This document shows positions 1-56,920 of a stretch of DNA of 57,360 bases, piece after piece (position 1 is the first letter of the stretch; the number at the start of each line of letters is the position of its first letter). The DNA lies in the NCBI GenBank assembly GCA_026025795.1, contig JAPEUG010000070.1:1-57360 (forward strand), written 5' to 3'. The notes beneath the pieces were generated by a model. That model was not told the DNA's origin. It saw nothing but the letters and a program-made list of their open reading frames with translations, and did no database searches. Source of the DNA: Thelocarpon superellum (taxonomy: Eukaryota). Both the position numbers and the translations under genes were made by a program.

Positions 1-3000
1 TACCACAACACAGGCCACATGACATGGCCATTGACCTCACAGAGGGAGAGCCACCATGGGGGCCCCTCTACAACCTATCAGCTACAGAGCTGAGTGTCCT
101 CAAGGACTACGTGGAAACCAACCTAGAAAAGGGGTTCATCCAGCATTCCAAGTCGCCAGCAGGAGCCCCAGTCCTCTTTGCGCCTAAGCCAGGTGGGGGA
201 CTGCGACTCTGCGTGGACTACAGGGGTCTCAATAAGATCACCAAGAAGAACCAGCACCCACTGCTATTGATCAGCAAGTCGCTAGATCGACTCTCACAGG
301 GCAAGGTGTTTACCAAGCTCGACATACGCGCTGTGTACAACCTGATCTGCATCAAGGACAGGGATGAGTGGAAGACAGCCTTCCAAACAAGATATAGACA
401 CTTCGAATACCAGGTGATGCCATTTGGGCTCATCAACGCCCCTGCTACATTCTAGAGCTATATCAATAGAGGACTAGCAGAATACCTGGACAACTTCTGT
501 GTAGTATACTTGGACAACATTGTCATATACAGCAAAGTCAAGGCCAAGCACATGCAGCATGTGTGCAAGGTGCTCAAATGCCTCCTACACCTCGGCCTAT
601 TTCTCAAGCTAGAAAAGTGCCAGTTCAATGTCAACAGAGTCCCCTTTGTGGGGTATGTCATCACACCTCAAGGGGTCCATATGGACCCTAGCAAGGTGGA
701 AGCTGTTGCAGAATGGCCAGCTCCCAAAACAACAAGGGATATCCAATCATTCATTGGATTTGCAAACTTCTACAGGCACTTCATCAAGGGCTTCGCAGAG
801 CTCGCACAGCCACTCAATGCGCTGGTGAAGACACCAAGCAAGAAGTCGAACACGCCTGTGGTGTTGATGCAGGAAGCTCGCTGCTCCTTCAAACAACTAT
901 GCGACGCCTTCACCAAAGCACCAGTCTTAGGCCACTTTGATCCCTGCCTCCCCCTTCAGGTTGAGACAGACGCCTCACAGATAGGCATCTCAGGAATCCT
1001 GTGCCAGCAGCACTAGGAAGACAAGAGGCTACACCACCAATAGCAACCCATTGTGTTCTACTTGCGCAAGCTCAGAGATGCTGAGTACAACTACAATACA
1101 GGCAACCTGGAGATGCTAGCAATTGTCACAGCGTTTGCACAGTGGAGACACTACCTCCAGGGTGCAGCACACCAGATCGAGGTGGTGACAGATCACAATA
1201 ATCTCCACACGTTCACCTCAGCTAAGACGCTGAGTGGACACCACAAGAGGTGGTATAGCGACCTATCTGAATATGACTTCTGAATCACACATCGACTAGG
1301 GAGACTGAACCCAGCTGACGCTCCATTGAGACATCCAGACTACGAGCAAGCCGCTGCCCCTGAGCAGGGAACTCCCATGTGGTTCATCGATACCATGGCT
1401 GGCCACGACCAACCCCATGCGATGGGTGAACCAGGCAGAGCAGCAGCGCTCGCCCTAATGGTTAGCAGTGGCAGCCATGTGTGCATTACACTGCGACGAA
1501 CAGTGATCGCAGCATCACATGCTGAGACAGCTTATGGCAAAGCTACAAGCAATTTCTGCAAGGTCCTTGCAGAACTGCAGCAAGCAGACCCTGACATTGT
1601 ACATATGACACAGAAGGGCTTCCTGCAAGACAATGCCAATACATCAACACAAGGATGCAACAACCCTGCAGTGGTGTGGAGCAAGGACACAGACAGCCTC
1701 GTGCTCCACAAGGGGTGCCTGTACATCCCTGCTCAGGGAGCAGGACGCTTGGAGGTTATGCAAACCCACCACAACAACCCTTTAGCAGGGCACTTTGGTG
1801 TACACAGGACTACAGAGCTGGTCTAGCGAAAGTACAGCTGGCCTACTGTGGCCTGGGACATCGAGGAGTATGTCCTTACCTGCGCCATGTGCAGACGAAT
1901 GAAGCCAGCAAGGCACAAGCAGTATAGAGAGCTACAATTGCTTCCTCCACCATCAGAACCATGGAAGGACCTAACCATGGATTTTGTCACTGACCTACCC
2001 CTGAGTGGTAGCAGTGGGAAGGCCTACAACTCCATCTTAGTCATCATGGACTGCTTCACCAAAATGGTGTGCTACATCGCGGTTCGCAAGACAATCGACA
2101 CACCTGAGCTGGCAGATGTCTTCATTGAGCAGGTTGTTAGCAGATATGGGCTACCAAGCTCCATAGTCTCTGACAGAGGCACAGTGTTCACAGCAAGCTT
2201 CTGGTCTGCGCTGTGCTACCACGCAAGGATCAAGCGCCACTTGAGCTCTGTGTTCCATCTGCAAACAGATGGACAGACAGAACAACAGAACCAGACGCTT
2301 GAGCAATACCTTTGTAGCTACATCAACTGGCATCAAGACAATTGGGTACAATGGCTACCCCTAGCCAAATTCTCCTACAACAACAGTTGCCACACCTTGT
2401 TGGGAGTATCGCTGTTCTATGCGATGTACAGCTACAACCCTGTGCTCAACCTGACTAGGAATCCACCCCCTCGCGAGGTCCCAGATGTCATGCAGAGGGT
2501 TAGCCACCTACAGGAACTACAAGGGGAACTCACACAGCAGCTCCAGGAAGCCCAGAAAACGCAGGCCAGATACTACGATCGCAAGACAAAGCGAATGACA
2601 TACGCAGTCAGACAGCAGGTGTGGCTATCAGCACACAACATCTGCTCTGCAAGACCAAGCAAGAAGCTTGATGTGAAATACCATGGCCCATTCCGCATAT
2701 TGGAAGCAGTAGGCAGGCAGGCCTACTGATTGGACCTAGGGAGCAAGCTGGGCAAGATACACCCTGTGTTCCATGTCTCCCTGTTGGAACCCCACAGGCA
2801 GAGAGACAACAGCGATGAGGAGCAACCAGGCCCCATCCAGATCAACAGCAAAGACAAATGGGAAATAGAGTCCATACTAGCAGAATGCAAGCAGTATAGG
2901 AAGCAGCTCTACCTCATACAATGGAAAGGCTACTCAGAGGCTCACAACTCCTGGGTGCCTGAGGAAGACCTGCTACACTCACGAGACCTACTCAACAAGT

Positions 3001-3074
3001 TCAAACAATGTCAACATGAGTGTCCTACAGCTTCTACAAGACAATCACAGGCACGACGCCAGGCAGTTGATTAA
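1..3074 (+). pseudogene. pol polyprotein (RT-RH-IN-chromodomain) with multiple in-frame stops
   Basis: ORFs 24-455, 510-1016, 1053-1283, 1326-1826, 1848-2729 and 2730-3074 share one frame separated by TAG/TGA stops. Catalytic YLDD reads YLDN at 507-518. Confidence 0.93.
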
Positions 3075-3236
3075 GAATGGATTCAGTCCCTCTGCAGGGA
3101 AGGCGCAGCAACCTAGGAAGCCAGTGGCATGTGGGCTTAGCTCCTAGTGGCTGGGGGCCCAGGGCCCAACCACGCAGCAGGAGATACAAAGATCACCTCA
3201 ACAGGAAAGGACCTGCAAGGTGTAACCAACAAGCAG

Positions 3237-4176
3237 CTAGTTGTCAGCCAGAGGACGACAGGAGGCCTCGGCTCTGTCAAGAGCCATGTGGGAAGCGCTG
3301 GACGCTGTTCGGCTGTGTGGGGTGCGAGGAGTTGCAGACTGCAAGGCCTGGTGGCTAGCGCTTGGGGATGGTTCTGAGGTGATTGTCCCCCCTGAAGGAC
3401 CTTGGCTTGGGGTTGAGGTGATAGACGACAGAGACAAGGGAGCGTCTTGGGTCAATCTGTGCCCATGTCCGCAACGCCCAGCAGATCGAGAGCTGGGGTT
3501 TGTGCTGGGGTTGACTCTGCCAATTGTGAAACCATGCACTCGAGGAGCGGCCTCACCCTCAAGTGGTTTGTCCAGAAGGTCTGGGTCCTCATCAGGACTG
3601 AACAGGTGGACTGCAGGGAATCGATTCTGCCACAATGTGAGCGACACCCAGCAAGCAGCAGAGACAACGCAGACGCCTACCAAGTAGCGCAGCTGGTTCA
3701 GGATCTCCATCAGGAGGAAGTTCGAATGCTCAGTCGCAGCAAGAAGAGCGCTGCTGTCACGCTGTCCACGCTTGTTGAACTTGACAGCAGAACGGAACTT
3801 CGAGATGTGGAGCAGTAGGCTAGACCTATAGGTCTCTAGCTGTGATTCTGCTGCAATGGCGTCAGTAGGAGGATGATGGAGCGAGTTCATGTACTGCTCT
3901 TGCAGCTGGAAGATGGTGTTCATGTGTCCCACAAACTTTGTGGGGATCTAGTTGACGACGACGAATCAGTGCAGCTACGCAGTAGAGCAATCGACATACT
4001 GAGAGACAGGGGTGCCCAGCGATTCGGCACCTATCGCACTTCCTATACAGATTAGGCTTATGGCACCTATGGCTGTGGTTGTGGCCAATCCACTTGATGC
4101 AGTGTTGACAGGTGCTCTGATCCAACACAGGAGGCGGGCCAGGCACAGCCACCTGCTCAGGGAACACAGCAGACAT
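3237..4176 (-). CDS. Antisense cargo gene inside the retroelement; N-terminal Zn2Cys6-like motif, ~277 aa, exons 4176-4000, 3947-3681, 3626-3237
   Basis: Introns GTATGT..CTGAT..TAG (3999-3948) and GTAGGC..GCTCAC..CAG (3680-3627) join the exons in frame. Motif is Cx2Cx11Cx8Cx2Cx6C. Confidence 0.7.
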
Positions 4177-4514
4177 TGTGAGGTTCAGCGAAAGTGGAAC
4201 AGAGGCAGAAGCGGATTGATGGAAGCAGAACAGGAGCAGAACAAACACAGGATATCCTTGAACAAAGAAGCTGCAACGATTGCAGATCGAGATCCTGGTT
4301 GACGAAGAAGCTGCAGAAGAAGCAGAGTGTCAACAGACCCACAACAAATATCAACAATGTGCGAATTAGCAGCAATTCACCACAACACAACAACAACATG
4401 TTGCCCTAGCCCTACAGCGCTATTGACAACCACCCCACAGGGCTATCCAGTTCAATAGCAGCAGGCGAATAGCTGTGTGCGCTCCTGGAACAGAGCACTA
4501 AGGAAGGGGGTAAT

Positions 4515-4771
4515 TGTGAGGCTGGGAGCTCCACGCCTCGCCACGAGGATAGGAGTGATCATGTGATGGCCATGTGATGGTCACATGATACAGCATGTGA
4601 CCTGGCACACTGTATATAAACCGAGTCCTGCTGTGAGCTAGCAGAGCCCCAGTGTTCAACTCAAGTAACACGAGGAGGCTAGTCATAGGTCTATGAGCCC
4701 TAGGAGCCATGGAGTCAACTCCATTGACTATGTCTACTGTTTCCGCCTAGCTGTAGGCCTTTGTCATCACA
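4515..4771 (+). repeat. 3' LTR (257 bp), preceded by polypurine tract
   Basis: TGTGA...TCACA inverted termini, PPT AAGGAAGGGGG ending at 4510, and a TATA-like TATATAAA near 4613. Confidence 0.85.
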
Positions 4772-32661: not shown

Positions 32662-32752
32662 TGTAATAGCGCGCACGTGACCTGGTCACGTGCCCACTCC
32701 TATTACTATCCCAGACTACGCGTAGATTAGCAATTCAGCTCTGATTCCTACA
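32662..32752 (+). mobile_element. 91-bp TG...CA mini-element (solo-LTR/TRIM-like), copy 1
   Basis: TGTA...TACA ends with perfect 4-bp TSD GCCT/GCCT. 85/91 identical to 55821-55911. Confidence 0.8.
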
Positions 32753-33232: not shown

Positions 33233-33571
33233 TCAAGATCCAAATTGAACAGCCCGCCGTTCTTTTTCCTTCTGCAAATCGTGGATCTCGGCATCAAGCA
33301 CCCTGATATTTTCGTAGGCGCGGTCGATGGAAGCTTTGAAGCGCGCGCCCTCGGATTGCCAGCGGCTGATCCGCTCGGCTTCTGCGGCCCGCCGGCGCAT
33401 CTTGGTGTCGATCCTCTCGCACGTCTTACATTTGTTCCCGATACGATAGGTGGTCATGACGAGTTTCATGCCGCACGTCTCGCCGGTGCGGTACTCGTGA
33501 TTGCAGTGTTGACGGAAGTGGCCCCACTTCCAGTCGTCGCAGGCGAAGAGATGCTGATCGAAGAAACACAT
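33233..33571 (-). CDS. Small Cys-containing fungal hypothetical protein (112 aa); probable 5'-UTR intron
   Basis: MCFFDQHLFAC..WGHFRQHC..TGETCGMKLV..CKTC followed by a coiled coil. Upstream gtaagt..ctgac..cag intron at about 33656-33608. Confidence 0.8.
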   Translation of the reverse strand: MCFFDQHLFACDDWKWGHFRQHCNHEYRTGETCGMKLVMTTYRIGNKCKTCERIDTKMRRRAAEAERISRWQSEGARFKASIDRAYENIRVLDAEIHDLQKEKERRAVQFGS

Positions 33572-36500
33572 GCTGTTTCAGATGTCGACGGGCAAGAGAT
33601 TGTATGCCTGGAAGGTCAGGGGCAGGACCAAGTCGTGACCAGACGCGAGCACTTACCAAGACGCTCGAGGTCGGATGCGTTCGACGTTAGCGACGATCCG
33701 CGACGTGGACGAGCGGTGACGGCGGACGAGAGTGAGGAATGTTTCGGACCTGGATGAGGAATGTGGAGAATGATCGATGAGGAATGCTGCTGAGACGTTT
33801 TCCGGGGGTGCGGAGGTCAGGAGCCGCACCGCTGGGGGTATTTATGTCGGAGCGGTCTCCAGCCTTGCTTTCGTTTCTGGATAACAATGACCCCGGGTTC
33901 CGCGCTCTCTTCCCACCCTCCCGAACACTCTCATCCCGTCACTGCCGTGGTCAGCCAACGAAAAGGAAGAGAAGGATGAAGTGACAACACACCATGCGAC
34001 ATCCTGGTCTTCAGCTTTACCGTCACAACCACCTCGAAAGAACTGCTGCAAGGCCTACCGCCATCACCATGCGGAAGATGCCCCTTTGGTCACCTTATGC
34101 GCAGATCGGCTTGGTTCGCTTGCTACCTGGCGATGGTTCGGTACCGGGGCATTAGTTGCGGCCTAGGCCGCCATTCCTCTGGACGGCACGCACTCCTGAC
34201 CTATGGTTCCTTCTTGAAGCCCCTGATGTTGCTGCTTTCCTGGTCCTGCTCTCCATCACGTGTGCCGGAGGTGTGGCAGCTGAAGTGGCACCCTACTGTT
34301 CCCGTCGCGCGCCAATGCACTAGGTTGCATTCCTGGTGCGTCAACATCGGCTCCTTTCACGAATATATCCCAGCCACGCTTTCCACGGAAGAACCGTACC
34401 CGATGAGCGCATGGTGGCGCGGTGGGGCCGTGGAATCATTGACCGGTCAACGCTACATGGCCCATGATGACTGGACGATAGCAAGACCGATCCGACATGC
34501 GTTGAGGTGACCAGGCTCCACGCTCCCGCCTCCTTCGCCCGCTGCGCTGACCCAGACCGCACGCTGCGTATACCGCATGGCCACCCCCCCTCCTCCCTGT
34601 GCAGTCCGATCGTCGTTCGATTCGACACCGTGCCAACTTGCACACTGGTTCGAGAGCCCTGCAATGGGCCTGGCTCCCTGGGATGCTTGGCTGGAGGGTG
34701 AACCGTGGTAACTTGTCTGTACGATGCATGCGCGATATTGTGGCGTTATCCAACTTGCCGGGGTCTGCATGCCCTCGTGGTTGACGAGGCTAGGGTCTAC
34801 GATGCGGCCAGTGATGCGATAGAGAGCGCCAACCCCTTGGGGCTGTTTACATGACGCCAGTGCTCGGCCCACCATGACCAGCGCGCCAATGCGTCGATGG
34901 GGAGCCCGAGCCGGTCTATCCTAGGTGTACACTGGCCTTCGTGGCTTCCACCGGGACGGCCGAGACACCAATGGCCGACTCTTTCGTGACGCATTGCTTT
35001 GGAGGGCACACCACCCTCCTGCGAAATTGGCGCAGGCGGCTGGGATGTTGTGCGGGCGTGCAGCAAGGCAGCCACCGGAGGCGCTCAAGTGTGCCAGAAG
35101 GGAGGTTTCTGCCTCATCCACAGCCAGTATCTCTGGCGGGACAAGCTCACCGCCACTTGGGCGTGCATCAAGGTGGACGCGCGTGGATCAAAACAATGAC
35201 CTGCCCACGTAGCGATGCCCAGCTAGGACGATGGTGCATGTCACCCGGATCGACACGGACGGAGGCGGAGGGTGTGGTGGCGCGAGGGCACGGTGCCTCT
35301 GGCAAGGACCTCGCCGGGACGGCACTAGGTTTAGTCGATGGCGGGGGGGCGGTGTTGGCACCCCCGACCGCAGCCATAGGCCGTTATTTTCCAACGCGAG
35401 TGGCTCTTGAACGAGAAAGTACTCTGGGTCGAGAGTAAACACCGTCCGCTTGGGACCAGGCTATGCGAGAAGTGGAGGATGAGGAAGCGAGGGGAGCAAA
35501 TGGTGCGACTGCGGCCAGTCAACAAGCGCCTAGGGTTCACGCGGAACTACACCATATCCCGATTGCTTCTTCAGACGTCATAATCGGCGCGGCTGCACCC
35601 CGCAGCGCGGTACCTGATCCTCGGGTCCTGCTCTATCCGATGAACGACGGAGGCTGGTTGAGGCAGGCCAGGGCGGAGCAAATAGGAAGGGCAGATGAGG
35701 GTCTGGAGGAGATAGAGTATCGGGGCGTGGACGAGGAGGGTGGGATCCAGTGGGCTGATTGGTTCAGGCGTCTCCTCACCAGTCGCCCGGGGCCCTCCGG
35801 AGGGCCAGCCAATGACGGCGGCGCGGGGACGTGTGGTGCATGTTGATGGGGGATGCGGTGTCATGGACCTTTGAGTTTGGTTGGTTCTACGGATCGCATG
35901 GCCGACCCGGCCTGCCGGGTGCGTCGCCGTCGCTCTACAGGAGTCCCATGCATCAGGCTACTGCCAACGCTGGGTCCACAAGGCGACCACGGCGCCGGGA
36001 GCACCTTGGGCTCGCCACACGGGTCGCCAGCTGGTCTACTTGTACGGCATAAGCTGAGGCCCCGCCAGGACCTCGAGGCGGGAGTGTTGACTTGCGTAAT
36101 GTCAGGTGAACGATTGTACGAGAGGTATATGAGGACTCGTGCATGCAAGCACGGAGTGCAATGGGGGGCCAGGCTAACTCCGTTGGAGCACGGGGTGTTG
36201 TGTCGCAGTTGACGCTGACCAGTCCACAGTCATGGGCTCGCGTCGCTTGGCCTTAGTGGCGGTCGCGGCACCTTTGTAGCGAGGGCCGCGAGAGGGTCGA
36301 TGCCTATCGATGAGCAACCCCCGCGGCCGCCTGGGCCCCGCCTCGTGCTCTCGACGCCAACGACGCCAACGACATTAGGCACGGCATCATCCGCTCATCT
36401 CAACGTCGATGACCACCGCCAGTCACGCCGATGTGCTTGCACGTCTCATACCCCAGGACGCCAGGTAGCGGTCAAGGGTCCGGTCTTGTTGCTATCCCAA

Positions 36501-36630
36501 GAGCTGTGTGGTGACGACTCCCTACTCTTCACCTCATCTGATCAGCCGACCTTCGCCGTCTCCGTTTCTTTCGTTATTCGTTCCACCCTCGGCGACGCCG
36601 GAGTTTGGATGGTCCTCCGATGGGCTCATC

Positions 36631-37488
36631 ATGGACCTGACGGATGAGCCGCATCCATCCCTCTTGGCCCTCTGCGATGAGCTGCTCTTACACATCTTCG
36701 CCTTCCTTGATGTTCCTGAACTGTTGAACTCGTCACGAGTAAGCGACGGCGTGGTGATGGGAGCGATCCTGAGTCAGTGACTGACCGAGCGCCAGACGTG
36801 CCACCGTCTCCGGCACATCTCGCTGGATCCGATCCTGCACCAGCATCGACTGCACCATGCCTCGCAGTGCCTCTCACACCAGCTCGACCGACGACGCTCG
36901 CTTTCCTCTCTCCTTCCGCCCACGTCGACCATCTACCTCTCGCGGACTCACTCGGCCGCGCGGGCGCTTTCTCGCTCACTGATCGCCATTCGCCTCAACC
37001 GGTCGCTCTCGCACCGGCCGTCGGCCTCCTCGCTCGTGACGTCCAACATCCTCCCGTCGGAGTGCTGCCGCCACGATGCCGCGACGGGCGAGGTGATCTA
37101 CGGCGGGGGCGTTGCACCACTCCTGGTTGGGGCACGACGCAGCGTGGAGCGTGAACGGGTCAAGGACCGGCTCCGTGGCAGCGTGGGGGCACGCAAAGGC
37201 CGCGAAGTGGCGGAGAAGCGCGGCTGGATCTCCGCCGCGGGCAGTTCTGGCGCACGTGAGGAGCGCGAGCGGCCCAATGTGCGAAACATGGCGGCCCGCT
37301 TTGCCCGGCGGGCTCGCGTAGCCACGTCGGAGGCTTCAGGGCGCGAGGCCGGCTCTTCTCGCTGGGGCCGTGCTGTAGCGGCTGCCAAGGAACGCGAGAA
37401 GGCGCGGGCGCTGGAAGCTCCAACACGCGCCAAAGTCTTGGGTCTTCGTAGATTCTGGGAGAGTGTTGGGCGGGCGAGCGTCGTCTGA
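36631..37488 (+). CDS. F-box domain protein; 1 intron
   Basis: LLALCDELLLHIFAFLDVPELLNSSR|TCHRLRHISLDPILH joined across a gtaagc..ctgac..cag intron. C-terminal PTRAKVLGLRRFWE. Confidence 0.85.
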
Positions 37489-38170
37489 CAGGATCTCTCT
37501 TTTCTTGGGCCATCGCCTTTGTGCTTTCGCTCCCTCTGCATCCACCCTCCTGTCCTTTCTCTCCTCCGCCTCTTCCTCTCCACCTTGCATATTCTCGTAG
37601 AAGCGCCGTGGTGCATATCTTGAATAGGCGTCGCAATCTATCCGGCCTGATTTGTTGGCTCAAGCCTGCACGCTGTCCGCAGAGTATTTTCACGGGTCTG
37701 CTGTTACGAATATGCGCTTCAACTCTGCCGCGCTGGAGCGATATGCCATCTCCTCTCCACCGATATTGCTCCACAACGTGTCCATTCTCCACTCTTAACT
37801 ATTTGTTGCGCTGCGAGAATACAGTGTAGATAGTATTAAGACTAGCTATTAAAACTCTGCTTGGGTCTCTCCATACCAATTATATGGGAACCAGCAAAGC
37901 AGCATTTCCTGCTCCGCCTTCCATGACCAACTGCTGATTATGTCATCTTCCAACAACATTCCGCCACCCATTGGGGCACGCCGCGTCGCCAAGAAGATGG
38001 TGACTAATGTCGCTGACTAACACTCTATAGCTCTTACGCATAGTTGCACTGGCGGTTGATACGTCACAACTGACTCCAATAACTCGACGCTGTCATAGTA
38101 TGATGAGTATCGAGTGCCAGGCGGAGCCCAAACACTCGCACTCGCTCACTAGGAGACGCTGGTGAGAGCC

Positions 38171-40412
38171 ATGGGCCGCTTGGTGACGGTCGCAACATGT
38201 TCGCTGAATCAGTGGGCCCTGGACTTTGAAGGCAATGCACAACGAATTATTGAGAGCATCCAACAAGCCAAGGCCGCTGGCGCCCGGCTGCGAGTTGGAC
38301 CGGAGCTGGAGATCACTGGCTATGGCTGTCTGGACCACTTCCTCGAAGGGGACACCTACCTTCATTCATGGGAGATGCTGGCCCGCATTCTGGACCATAA
38401 GGACTGCCAGGAAATCCTCCTGGATATCGGCATGCCCGTTCGACATCGGAACACCCACTTCAACTGCCGTGTGATTGCATACAATCGTCGGATTCTACTC
38501 ATCCGGCCGAAAATATGGCTAGCTAATGATGGTAATTATCGGGAGATGCGGTACTTCACTGAGTGGCGTCGGCCACGACACGTCGAACAGTATGACCTCC
38601 GACACATCCACTGGACAGTCTCAGATCAGTCATTTATTCCCTTTGGTGATGCCTTAATCAGTACCCGTGATACCTGCATAGGGGCCGAAACGTGTGAAGA
38701 GCTATTCACGCCAGACAGGTAAGCGATCCTTGAGGGACGACAGTGCCACAGTAGAGGGAGAGCTCACCACGAAGTACAGTCCTCACAACCACATGGGCCT
38801 GAACGGAGTGGAGATTTTCACCAACTCTAGTGGCAGCCACCACCAGTTACGGAAGCTCGATGTCCGCGTTGAATTGATTCGGGAAGCGACGCGAAAGGTA
38901 CTTCCGACAAGGACGGCTGTTCCGGGTTGTAGCTGATGGCGGTAGAATGGCGGAATCTATCTATACTCGAATCAGCAAGGCTGTGACGGCGACCGACTCT
39001 ACTACGATGGCTCTGCTCTGATCGTGGTGAATGGAGAGATCCTGGCACAAGGCTCTCAATTCTCGCTCCACGATGTCGAAGTCATCACCGCTACTGTCGA
39101 TCTCGAGGAAGTGCGCAGCTACCGGACCGCACCGAGCCGGGGCTCGCAAGCCATCGAGCAAGCAAGCTATGAACGAATCGAGACTGATCTTAACTTGTCG
39201 CAGCATGGAGGTGAGCTCGACCTCAACCTGCATCCAACTGTCCGACAAGAGGCTTGGTATCATACGCCGGAACAAGAGATTGCATTAGGGCCGGCATGTT
39301 GGCTGTGGGACTACCTGCGCCGATCTCGAGCAGCGGGCTTCTTCCTACCGCTCAGTGGTGGGATCGATAGCTGTGCTACTGCAGTGATCGTGCACTCCAT
39401 GTGCCGGAAGGTGGTCGAGGCGGTCGAAGAAGGCAATCAGCAGGTCATCCACGACGCACGAAGAATCGCAGGAGAGCCGGAAGACTCTACGTGGGTGCCA
39501 AAAGAGCCCCAGGAACTCTGCCGTCGCATCTTCCACACGTGCTTTATGGGAACGGAAAACTCCAGCAAAGACACGCGTGGCCGCGCCAAGGACTTGGCGC
39601 AGGCCATCGGAGCCTACCACACAGACCTGAACATGGATCGATTGGTTACTGCCATGGTGGACCTGTTCTCCCTTGTCACGTCCTTTCGACCCAAGTTCTT
39701 TGTGCGTGGCGGAAGCAAGACGGAGAACTTGGCGATGCAGAACATCCAGGCCAGACTTCGCATGGTATTGGCGTACCTTTTTGCCCAGCTTCTGCCGACG
39801 GTCCGGAATCGACAAGGGGGTGGTGCGCTATTGGTACTAGGGAGCGCCAACGTCGACGAATGTCTGCGTGGCTATCTCACCAAATACGACTGCTCCTCGG
39901 CCGACATCAACCCCATTGGCGGAGTCTCCAAGACCGATCTCAAACGGTTCATCGCGTACGCACAGGACGCCTTCTCCCTCCCGATTCTCGCGTCCTTCCT
40001 CAAGGCCACGCCGACGGCGGAGCTGGAACCTATCACGCAGTCCTATGTGCAATCTGACGAAGCTGATATGGGCATGACGTACGACGAGCTCTCAGTCTTT
40101 GGCCGGCTCCGCAAGGTTGAGAAGCTAGGTGTGTGGGGGATGTTCAGCAAGCTGTGCTACCTGTGGGGGGACCGGCTCACGCCGCGCGTCATCTACGAGA
40201 AGACGCGACGCTTCTACTACTTTTACGCCATCAACCGCCACAAACAGACCGTCTTGACGCCCAGCTATCACGCTGAATCGTACAGCCCCGACGATAATCG
40301 CTACGACCTTCGCCCCTTTCTCTATCCTGCCTTTGAGTGGCCCTATCGGAAGATTGAGCAGTGGCTTGACGTCTACGAGCGGAGGGAGAAGGATGGCGGT
40401 AAGGAGGCATGA
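38171..40412 (+). CDS. QNS1: Glutamine-dependent NAD+ synthetase; 2 introns
   Basis: [59 protein letters not shown] and PTAELEP. Confidence 0.97.
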
Positions 40413-52634: not shown

Positions 52635-54163
52635 CTATGGTGATTGCAAAGGCAGTCCGAGCGATCCGCTGGACGATGGATCCTTGGACGAAAGGTGGTC
52701 GTTGTCGTCGACATGATATTCGACGTTGCTCCGATCGTTTCCTCCTCCGCTCTCCAAATCATCCTTCCGCGACGGCTCCCTGCCGCGGGCCTCGAGGTGG
52801 TCGAGGAGGATCGAATCCCTCTCCCAGCGCTCATCCGCCGTCCACGCGACCTGCTCTGGGTTGGTCTTGGGCAACGGTTCGCCCACATTTTGGTAAGGAC
52901 CCGAAGCGACCTCGTCAATAGTGGACACCAGCGTGGTGCCTGTGTTAGACCATTTGGATTTCTTGCTCCACTTCGACGACCATTGTCGGGGGTAGCGGTT
53001 GACCGGGTCCGCTCCGCTACTCTGCCTGCTCTGCCTGCTCGACCCCACTTTGGAGAAGAGGCTAAGGCTGGCTACGCGCACGAACAGTGGGCGCATGATG
53101 GGGAGGCAGGCGCAGACAATGCCGAGGTTGGCTTCGAGCAAAGTCCAAAGCGCCGGAGCGTAGGCCGTCCCTACGTGACGTGCTTTCAGCAGGAGGTCGA
53201 GGATGATTATCAGGAAGTCTTACACGTCGGGTCGTCCGTGTACAGCTGGTGGAGGACGGAGAGTCGGATTGCGCTCGCTATGCACACGCTTCATGTCCTG
53301 GTCAGCCGACGCTGCCACGCGAGCGGATCAAGACTCACAAGCCACCGAGCAAAAAGATGCAAGAGAGTCCGATCTTTTGCTTGATTGACACCTTGAGTCG
53401 CCAGACCTGTGGCATTGGGAGGATGAGGATTGCTAGGTCGGTGAAGATGGTCAAGCCAGCTTCGGCGACGATGAAGGCGTAGATATTGATACACGAGCCC
53501 TCCCCGTACACCTCCCAGAAGTGCGAGATGGGCGTGCAGGAGAAGATGGCGACTGCGAGCGCCGAGATCCACCCGAACACGATGAAGGACGCGATGGCGT
53601 ACACAAAGTACCGGAAGCTGCCCAATGTGAAGATGCGGCAATAGAAGAGGAGAATGGAGCCCTTGATCAGCTGAATGCAGAATGAGTAGGCTATATCGAA
53701 GAAATATTGCGTCTGTTGCATCTGAGTGGCGATCTCACGAAGAGCGGGCCGACAGGAGCGCGCACCTTGAGGACACTGAAGATGTTCGCCACTGGTAGGG
53801 CAAAGAGGTGCATTCCGAGGCCATAGCGAATTGCTGGGCCCGAGATCAGCTGGAGCACAGGGCACGTTGGGGATGGAGGGAGCATGCATATTAAGTTGAC
53901 TGTCATGAGCAAGTACGCGAATATCTGGCAGGGTCAGCAGCGCGGCCGGGCGGACGGAGAAGTTTACCGCGTACCTCTGAAAGGATGATGAGATACTCAT
54001 CGTAGCTCCATGCCGCCTTTTTCAGCCTCCGCGCGAGCAGGCGAAGCGCGACAGCAACGGTGGACAAACTGATCAGGATCACATTGATGGCGATGAGCTG
54101 CCCTTGTCGCGACTCGTGAGTATGTGCTAGCTGGTATGCGATTGAATCACCCAGCGAGCTCAT
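52635..54163 (-). CDS. PTH11-like (fungal rhodopsin-domain) integral membrane protein without CFEM; several introns
   Basis: VALRLLAR..WSYD, IKGSILLFYCRIF, FSCTPISHFW, TDLAILILPM, FLLG and WTLLEANLGIVCACLP. Confidence 0.9.
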
Positions 54164-55632
54164 GATGGCAGCTCGGAGCCCTGGGTCAAGACCTTCGTCC
54201 GGTTAGGCAAACGTCCGGGCGCCGATGCGCTACAGGGCGCATGCTCATATAAGGCGTCTAGAAGCAAGCCCGTGCCCGTTGGTCTTCGTCTAGGGGGGTT
54301 GGGTTAACGAGCCGGGCCATGTGGGGCGAGGTGGGCCAGGGAGACTATCGAACCTCGGCAACCGTGTCGCCCAGCAGCCTCTGCGGGGCTGGCATGGACG
54401 GCGCGGCAGAGCAATCCCTCCCTGCCGTCTATGCCGCTCGCATGCGTTGATCTCCTGCACGTTGACAAATGAAAAGGCATCTTCTAGCACCATTGTTCAC
54501 TTAAGGTCAATGCCGACTCAGCGAAGTGACCTACATGCGAGCTTCTACCCACTAGTTGGTAGCGATCTAGATTGTTTGAAGAATCCCTCATCGAATGGTG
54601 GAATAGATTTGCATGACTAGGGCGGGGAAGTGCAACAACTCGCAGCAGTTCCTACTAGAAGGATGAGCTCTCGTTTCGATTTGTTACCACTTAAGCGATG
54701 TCCGTGACATTCACAAGCTTACCTAGAGCCAGCCAGGCAAGCATGACCCCGACGACAACAACGACGATGAGATCAAGTTGGTAGAACAAGAGAATGGCTA
54801 CGAGGCCGCGAGCAAGCGCAAGCAAGCAAAGCAGAACCAAGGTGGCAGGATTGGCAAGAAGTGAGTGCCAAACATGAAAGTTACACACGTCCGAAGGTGA
54901 GGAAGCGAAGCGGCTCGCCTCTTTGATGTAGATGATCGTCGAAGGGCGGGTAAGCACTAGTAGGAGTGAATATGCGCGCATCATCATCGATGGCACAAGG
55001 TGGACATGGCCTAGCTAGTCAGGTTCAAGAGTCCCTGGCATCCCGTACTTCGGACTTGTACACAACTAGCCATGATCGGCTATCATGCTGCAGTCCGACA
55101 ACTCTCGCGGGATGTGGAATCCAGCAAAGCGCGTTCGAATACGTGGGTTATCACTAGCCTCACCACTACCGCTTGCCGTGTGACACCCCGCGCTTCGACT
55201 CCCGCTTTGCTCCATGCTAGTGCGAAATGTCGTGCCGTGTCCGCCTGACAGTTTTCCCTACACTATTCTCAGATCCGCTAAAACCTCAGATCCTCTAAGT
55301 TTTCTCAACCCCTCTACTCTATCTTCGAATCCCTACTTTTCTCAAATATTCATCCGAGCTTCGAGAGAGGTGCTCGGTGAAATACGTAACGGGCTAGCGG
55401 GCCAAGATACTAATAGTAAGTATGAGTAGTAGTTGAGGTTGACGGTCTATCTGATGATTACCAACATGACATCAGCCCCAAAAGTGGAACATACGAATGT
55501 ATATAACCTTCGGTGCCAGTCCCCAGATGGCTCTATCTATTAGATCCATGGCCACTGCGAGGCACTTTGAGCATTGTAATCTCAGCATCATTGCACGAGT
55601 CCCCATCGTGAGCTACAAACGCAGCGTCGCCC

Positions 55633-56920
55633 ATGGCTTCCATTCGTGCGGAAAATCTGTTCAATGTTGATGGCTTGGTGGCGGGGGCGGGGGCGGTTGT
55701 TACGGGCGCGGGAAGTGGTGCGTTCACATCTTAGCTGGCTGGCCCTATTGCGAGCAAGCTGCAAATGGACGGCTGCGGACTTACGGTGGTGTTTCGATCC
55801 TCGAGGAATTGGTTTGATGGTGTAGGAGCGCGCACTTGTTCTGGTCACGTGCCCACTCCTATTACTATCCCAGACTACGCGTTGATTAGCAATTCAGCTC
55901 TGATTCCTACAATGATAAAATATCGGCTTTCTTGAGCATCTTTAATGCTATTCCCGATAGCGCGTTGACGGGCCGAGGGTGGCAGTTTGCCAAGGCCTTG
56001 GCGGCCAACGGAGCCCGGAGAGTCTACATCATTGGACGACGCAAGGAGCTGCTGGAGACTGCAGCCAAGCAGAGCGTGAGCATCCTGGTCCACTACGGAC
56101 AATCCACCGCCCCTAGCTAATGCAGAACAGGGCTTTGAGGCCATTACGCCTTTACCAGGCGACGTCACGTCGCGAGAGTCGCTGGCTCAATTGGCCGCAC
56201 AGGTCGAAAAGGAGGTCGGCTTTGTCAATGTCGTCGTCGCCAACGCCGGTACCTCCGGTCCCACGTTGGGGGCCCTGCAGAGAACCCCACCGCCGTCCCT
56301 CTCCGAGATCCGTCAGCGTTTACCCCCTACCCCCGCCTCGGACTGCACCAACACCTTTGCCGTCAATAACACGGCCGTGTTTGAGACCGTGGTGGCCTTC
56401 CTGGCCTTGCTCGATGCCGGCAACGCCAAGAAGAACGTCTCGCAAAAGAACCAGTTCATCACCACCTCCAGCATCGGAGGCTTCCATCGCGTTCCCTTTG
56501 CTGGCCTTGCCTATGGTGCCAGCAAGGCTGGAGCCACGCACATGATGAAGACGCTGGCTACGTGGCTCGTGCCGTATCAGATCCGTTGCAATGTCCTGGC
56601 CCCCGGTAAAAAGTAGTCTCGCCATTGCACGCGCTCGGCGTCCACGTGGCCGCCGTCAAGCGTAGCGGCCCCCTGCTGACGAGACGGGCCCCGACGTAGT
56701 CTATCCCTCGGGATTGTCCGCTCCCTTCTTCGCCAAGATGGAGAACCCGACCGCCAAGGATACCCTCGACGCCACTATGGTTCCAGCTCGGAGGATGGGG
56801 ACCCAGGACGACATGGCCGGTGCCACTTTGTTCTTGACCAGCCGGGCCGGTGCCTACTGCAATGGCAGCGTTGTCGTAACGGACGGTGGCCGATTGTCCA
56901 TCCTGCCATCGACATATTGA
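55633..56920 (+). CDS. Short-chain dehydrogenase/reductase; 4 introns including a 14-nt micro-exon (55806-55819)
   Basis: VVTGAGSG|IGLM|FAKALAANGA..IIGRR, ANAG, YGASKAG, RCNVLAPG and TDGG. Confidence 0.85.
55821..55911 (+). mobile_element. 91-bp TG...CA mini-element, copy 2, at the 5' end of an SDR intron
   Basis: TGTAGGA...TCCTACA 7-bp terminal inverted repeats, flanks ATGG/ATGA, 85/91 identical to copy 1. Confidence 0.8.

Follow-up and report, generated by a model that had tools for sequence, protein, structure and literature searches.

In the window, by which we mean the whole stretch of Thelocarpon superellum DNA that was analysed (57,360 nt), a mobile element sits at the start of an intron of an SDR gene. 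The question raised by this locus is whether the element has rebuilt the splice donor of that intron, so that the gene now depends on it, or whether it has come to lie in a gene that is decaying. The initial annotation had described a mini-element that duplicated ATGG on insertion into an ancestral intron start and left a donor made of one host base and the first base of the element. The arrangement itself can be read directly: the intron starts with the host G at 55820 and continues with TGTAGGA of the element (TGTAGGA...TCCTACA, 55821-55911), which is followed by ATGA (55912-55915) and then TAAAA, and the GT-AG interval from 55820 to 55985 measures 166 nt. Subtraction of the element and one TSD from these 166 nt leaves 71 nt, the length that had been proposed for the ancestral intron. 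The features are collected in Table 1.

Table 1. Features of the SDR gene, as modelled, and of the inserted LTR family in the window.
Feature	Position	Strand	Remarks
SDR exon 1	55633..55717	+	Start of Rossmann fold, TGAGSG; 12-nt in-frame insertion at about 55684-55695
Intron 1	55718..55805	+	Site common to homologues; good donor (GTGCGT), non-canonical acceptor (GAG)
SDR exon 2	55806..55819	+	14 nt, G-I-G-L-M; first Gly split by intron 1
Left TSD, ATGG	55817..55820	+	Final G is the first base of the sole donor giving a protein of homologue length
Solo LTR	55821..55911	+	91 nt, TG...CA, 7-nt terminal inverted repeat, Ty3/gypsy family
Competing donor within LTR, GTAGGA	55822..55827	+	+5G present; +2 frameshift with acceptor at 55985
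Right TSD, ATGA	55912..55915	+	One mismatch, presumably G>A at the old donor
71-nt remainder	55915..55985	+	Putative lineage-specific intron; ends in CAG, single-copy in genome
SDR exon 3	55986..56075	+	
Intron 3	56076..56130	+	GTGAGC...CAG, 55 nt; position as in some homologues
SDR exon 4	56131..56605	+	Catalytic N, S and YxxxK preserved; numerous residues that homologues rarely have
Intron 4	56606..56699	+	Homologue register (56609) has AA, not GT
SDR exon 5	56700..56920	+	Runs to stop codon
Second solo LTR of same family	32662..32752	+	Perfect 4-nt TSD

The gene belongs to the classical SDRs (PF00106 and PF13561 in Pfam), and its named homologues are from filamentous ascomycetes. It resembles the fungal classical SDRs in its TGxxxGxG, NAG, catalytic S and YxxxK motifs and in the sites of introns 1, 3 and 4, and differs from them by an additional intron 2, four inserted residues, an excess of rare residues and splice sites that are abnormal. 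As predicted from the sequence, an open model of 294 amino acids exists, in which the Rossmann glycine motif, NAG, the catalytic S and YxxxK are all present, provided that all four introns splice as modelled. The sequence of the 14-nt micro-exon is joined to the next exon in homologues. We regard it as real coding sequence, since GIGLM occurs in homologues and the 24-nt spacing of the motif becomes exact once the 166 nt are removed. Protein length is normal only when the donor at 55820 is paired with the acceptor at 55985. Skipping of exon 2 was rejected, because the sole open route needs another GAG acceptor and loses two residues of the motif.

That a mobile element was inserted with a 4-nt TSD is borne out by its family, of which 107 full-length copies were gathered. 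The 4-nt TSD is perfect in 71 of them, has one mismatch in 16, among them the copy at the SDR locus, and has more in 20. A search of the 19-Mb genome with the 91 nt gave 40 full-length matches of 93-100% identity among 155 candidates, and the last 19 nt of the LTR have 99 exact matches, against 0 for a reversed control. Taken with the 71/107 perfect TSDs, these counts argue that the repeat is not due to chance. The copy at the SDR locus is of average age, its 3 substitutions from the family majority being equal to the family median. Nor does its one-base TSD mismatch call for a special event, since 16 of the 87 copies with no or one mismatch have one.

The term “mini-element”, on the other hand, has to be given up, as the same sequence also bounds both ends of a coding element of 6.2 kb. 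This full-length but broken Ty3/gypsy element with 90-nt LTRs (L032:913-7210; G000 C31, ~33302-39510, minus strand) comprises 6208 nt, with a direct-orientation LTR at each end and an outer TSD of CTTG/CTTG. By direct reading, a primer-binding-like TGGTAGC follows the 5' LTR and a purine tract precedes the 3' LTR. The interior has, on the minus strand, Pfam matches to gag, protease, RT and RNase H in this order and, beyond RNase H, an integrase-like piece (best PDB match an integrase, E 9e-5). This domain order is that of Ty3/gypsy, and together with the LTR at both ends it identifies the insert in the SDR gene as a solo LTR. The L032 copy is interrupted by many stops and its LTRs differ at 7/90 positions. 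All seven differences are transitions, and the interior has almost lost its CpG (o/e 0.05 compared with ~1.1 in the flanks), pointing to CpG-directed RIP-like or methylation-driven mutation. The genome has six LTR-PBS junctions.

The family thus shares with Ty3/gypsy (Metaviridae) solo LTRs the TG...CA ends and a short TSD, an identical sequence at both ends of a gag-protease-RT-RNase H-integrase interior with PBS and purine tract, and an excess of solos that far outnumber the full copies. As a rule, the gypsy LTRs of fungi are longer than this, and 5-nt TSDs are frequent among them. What sets the present family apart from the usual Ty3/gypsy elements is the combination of a 90-91-nt LTR with a coding 6.2-kb element, together with the 4-nt TSD and a palindromic, TA-flanked, GTA-biased target. 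LTRs of this length are unusually short for a coding element, which is of modest interest. A literature search found no paper on this short-LTR family among the matches listed, which does not prove that none exists. LTRs of 85-120 nt, solo LTRs and proximity to genes are also features of SMART/FRetro129 of grasses, described as non-autonomous with 85-nt LTRs that form solos (PMC3281118), and of Helenus, described as fungal TRIMs with 5-nt TSDs (PMC10886601). In the accounts given by these sources, the elements are non-autonomous and have a very short interior and 5-nt TSDs in plants and fungi, whereas the present family combines a full coding interior with TSDs of 4 nt.

Several copies of the family deserve separate mention. 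L034:1041-1356 contains two independent solo LTRs that lie 226 nt apart, each with its own TSD. Within L034:1041-1356 and L029:1501-1600, one solo has an internal duplication, and the 5' end in L029 is rearranged. At L039:972-1061, the same LTR, with a perfect TSD and 94 bases added, breaks a frame of 429 codons that has a signal-peptide-like start and no Pfam match.

The 71 empty sites rebuilt from copies with perfect TSDs show a palindromic preference, with TA flanking the TSD on both sides. GTA starting at the last TSD base is found at 25/71 sites on the element strand and at 19/71 on the opposite strand, compared with ~1% per flank position, and a G stands directly before the T of the LTR in 56 of the 107 copies. 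Given this preference for GTA, and with TG at the start of each LTR, insertion of the element automatically yields a G+TG “donor”. The new GT at the SDR locus is a by-product of the integrase preference, and the target bias explains in simple mechanical terms how an insertion at the start of an intron recreates a GT.

As a splice donor, the new GT looks poor. We built a donor matrix from 37 distinct homologue donors, 89% of which have a +5G; a window-wide tally of donors derived from branch-site motifs gave just 5 unique cases and was left out of the scoring. In this matrix, which is crude since it gives the canonical, shared donor of intron 3 only -0.9, the LTR-made in-frame GTGTAG, a donor without +5G, scores -5.4, the competing GTAGGA +4.1, the presumed old donor -1.8 and the lowest homologue donor +1.2. 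The initial annotation was right to point to a competing donor 2 nt downstream. Its expectation that use of this donor would shift the frame holds for the acceptor at 55985, but not for those at 55897 or 55960, with which the frame is kept and 30 or 9 residues are added.

Other lesions of the gene are unrelated to the LTR. They are the GAG acceptor of intron 1, which the initial annotation does not mention, the loss of the intron 4 donor from its register, and the 4-residue insertion. Among 16 distinct intron 1 acceptors in homologues there are 10 CAG, 5 TAG, 1 AAG and 0 GAG, and GAG acceptors are rare in general. In intron 4, the sole in-frame GT is at 56606, and its use loses the Gly of APG. 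The insertion adds four residues to the first beta strand and is absent from 21/21 displayed homologues in the alignment. The protein also has 20 residues with a frequency of no more than 1% among homologues (83 homologues have a median of 5, and 5/83 exceed 20), a count that is inflated because the set holds no close relative (best identity 60%). S170N sits in a column that is S in 119/119 homologues.

There is also evidence against decay. The frames of the exons are intact, with no stop or frameshift in any of them, and so are the catalytic N, S, Y and K. The 3/3 coding differences to a related strain (runs X2 and X3) are synonymous. Moreover, no paralogue was found in the organism's own genome at E 0.001, the gene being the assembly's sole match to its subfamily. 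On balance, we think that the SDR gene, judged by its sequence, is probably decaying rather than rescued. Of the two outcomes between which the initial annotation had left the choice, decay is therefore the better supported, and dependence on the new donor is less so, given the independent lesions and the weakness of that donor. An ordinary solo-LTR insertion into a decaying SDR gene is in our opinion the probable explanation of the locus.

Run X1 adds to the case for decay, as it contains a minor form (depth 58 vs 88) with 7 differences within 56318-56393. At three of its 5 amino-acid changes, this form has the residue most frequent in homologues in place of a rare one in the window; of the other two, one is uninformative and one (V151A) goes in the opposite direction. 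There is also a form, at a similar depth, in which the sequence jumps from 56429 to 56781 and the stretch between is not given. The X1 differences are confined to 56288-56810, with none in the rest of 2.9 kb, and the minor form may represent an allele, gene conversion or a second organism.

The intact frames and catalytic residues, the synonymous differences and the single-copy status of the gene would also be expected if the gene were alive, with the 166-nt intron spliced from the LTR-made GTGTAG and with the GAG acceptor and the shifted intron 4 donor tolerated. Such a rescue would have a precedent: according to PMC12130899, solo LTRs of a Copia family in switchgrass form functional introns, and ~12% of classified introners are LTR-derived, solo LTRs included. 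The SDR locus resembles the LTR-derived introners described there in that a GT within a gene is contributed or co-opted by an LTR copy. It differs from them, as far as that description goes, in that the LTR provides a predicted donor only, the acceptor being host sequence 74 nt beyond it. Rescue would, however, require three weak or abnormal splice sites to be used together, in addition to acceptance of the 4-residue insertion, while a better donor lies just 2 nt away. Judging from L032, the locus would also have had to survive a stage with a 6.2-kb insertion at the donor. We therefore regard functional rescue as rather unlikely.

A broader proposal would be that the integrase bias sets the TG of an LTR about as short as a fungal intron behind the G of a 5' splice site, that the resulting hybrid host/LTR donor is used, and that the gene survived the 6-kb stage. 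We consider this quite unlikely as well. If the hybrid donor were used in RNA, the locus would offer a clear example from nature of a host splice donor replaced by a retrotransposon, and the hybrid donor would represent a step, open to testing, on the way to LTR-derived introners in fungi.

We compared the locus with the best 80 of the 226 homologue loci found, which are 43-58% identical to the window gene. In 75 of these 80 (56 distinct DNA stretches), the glycine motif is uninterrupted by one test; of the remaining five, four show no break when judged by motif spacing, and in L113 an intron follows one codon later. The ancestral intron that the initial annotation expected to find in relatives is thus present in 0/80 of these loci, an outcome which that annotation had itself named as refuting its proposal, and intron 2, unlike introns 1, 3 and 4, which are common to some homologues, would have to be lineage-specific. 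At only 43-58% identity of the homologues, a lineage-specific intron is still likely. A pre-insertion intron of 71 nt is supported by the homologue spacing of 24 nt, which is restored exactly when 166 nt are removed. In view of this spacing, of the CAG at its end, and of G-TA being the common target, a lineage-specific intron of 71 nt that predated the insertion is the simplest reading and, by these sequence criteria, a likely one. The empty site that had been proposed, ATG followed by GTAAAA, is then the most parsimonious, with G-TA at 25 and A-TA at only 2 of the 71 sites with perfect TSDs; the intron that it implies is without support from homologues. L113 and the window form a near-intron pair, the homologue's intron lying one codon downstream of intron 2.

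The 71-nt remainder matches only itself in its own genome, and has only chance matches of 11-15 nt to the fetched loci. Derivation from the LTR was also considered, and a likeness of 73% over 26 nt was treated as chance. No joint that skips the LTR was found in runs X1-X4, which is a weak test, as contigs break at the repeat and X2 and X3 have no contig across the site.

The absence of the intron from the 80 homologue loci could also mean that there was never an intron. The site would then have been ATG ATA, encoding Met-Ile as many homologues do, the TSD would be ATGA with A>G in its left copy, the 71 nt would be an unrelated insertion, and the GT-AG ends would be coincidental. Residue 34 fits this, being Met or Ile in 92/101 homologues and Phe in at most 1%. 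What makes this account very doubtful is that a chance in-frame CAG would be needed exactly one codon before the resumed exon, and that A-TA is so much rarer than G-TA as a target of the family. In addition, the 71 nt match no repeat, and, as L113 illustrates, introns can arise at a distance of one codon.

We thus return to an ordinary solo-LTR insertion, for which the following course of events can be envisaged. A Ty3/gypsy retrotransposon with 90-91-nt LTRs would have integrated between ATGG and TAAAA, the G being the base with which a lineage-specific intron of 71 nt began. Recombination between the LTRs would have removed the interior of ~6 kb, so that a solo LTR flanked by 4-nt duplications remained. 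The preference for GTA and the TG of the LTR would together have made a new GT, a poor donor beside a better one that is out of register. The duplicated old donor, in the second TSD copy, would later have lost its G by a neutral G>A change, an effect of ordinary drift. The SDR gene may have been dispensable or already failing, and would now be decaying; in that case, the rebuilt donor is probably without a selected function.

The high copy number and the 7-nt terminal inverted repeat of the 91-nt unit, the donor-like GTAAG/GTATG/GTGAG at 12/71 target sites, and a branch-plus-acceptor pattern downstream of 17/54 GTA sites (21% of controls, one-sided p 0.04) might suggest a unit that moves on its own, as a MITE, TRIM or introner, and that seeks out or generates splice sites genome-wide. 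This is extremely improbable, since the 91 nt form the LTR of an element with a coding interior, no short LTR-interior-LTR form occurs among the loci fetched, +5G is found at 16/54 GTA target sites compared with 27.6% of control GTA sites (p 0.76), and a Pfam scan of 448 (of 467) LTR-flanking frames gave just 8 matches, and in these cases the LTR seems to precede or follow the gene. The lack of +5G enrichment indicates that real donors are not generally targeted, and systematic targeting of true donors was ruled out on this ground. A MITE or other non-autonomous DNA transposon was rejected because the terminal repeat is limited to 7 nt, there is no stable hairpin (z 0.10), and the unit is an LTR. 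A TRIM was rejected as well, for among the loci fetched there is no short non-coding interior between two short LTRs, the close pair in L034 being two solos.

Some further observations concern other parts of the window and the sequencing runs. Positions 1-4771 hold a different Ty3/gypsy element with a purine tract and, by eye, RT-like, integrase-like and chromodomain-like pieces; its LTR is ~257 nt long (4515-4771), and related copies occur in L018 and L028. At 37801-37956 there is a second repeat family, which is older and has matches of 73-77% in L008, L013 and L017. In L017, the 91-nt LTR adjoins or sits inside a copy of this older family, which ends in the same terminal motif. X2 and X3 are two moss-metagenome runs of one study, in which a close relative is present at low depth; the pieces are 151-290 nt long with 3-11 differences, and copies of the LTR that lies in the SDR gene occur there at other sites. 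Next to the SDR gene, a fungal rhodopsin-domain gene (PF20684) lies on the minus strand at 52635-54200. Here, too, a donor may have been lost, since an intron-like stretch with a branch site and CAG seems to lack a GT and reads through in frame.
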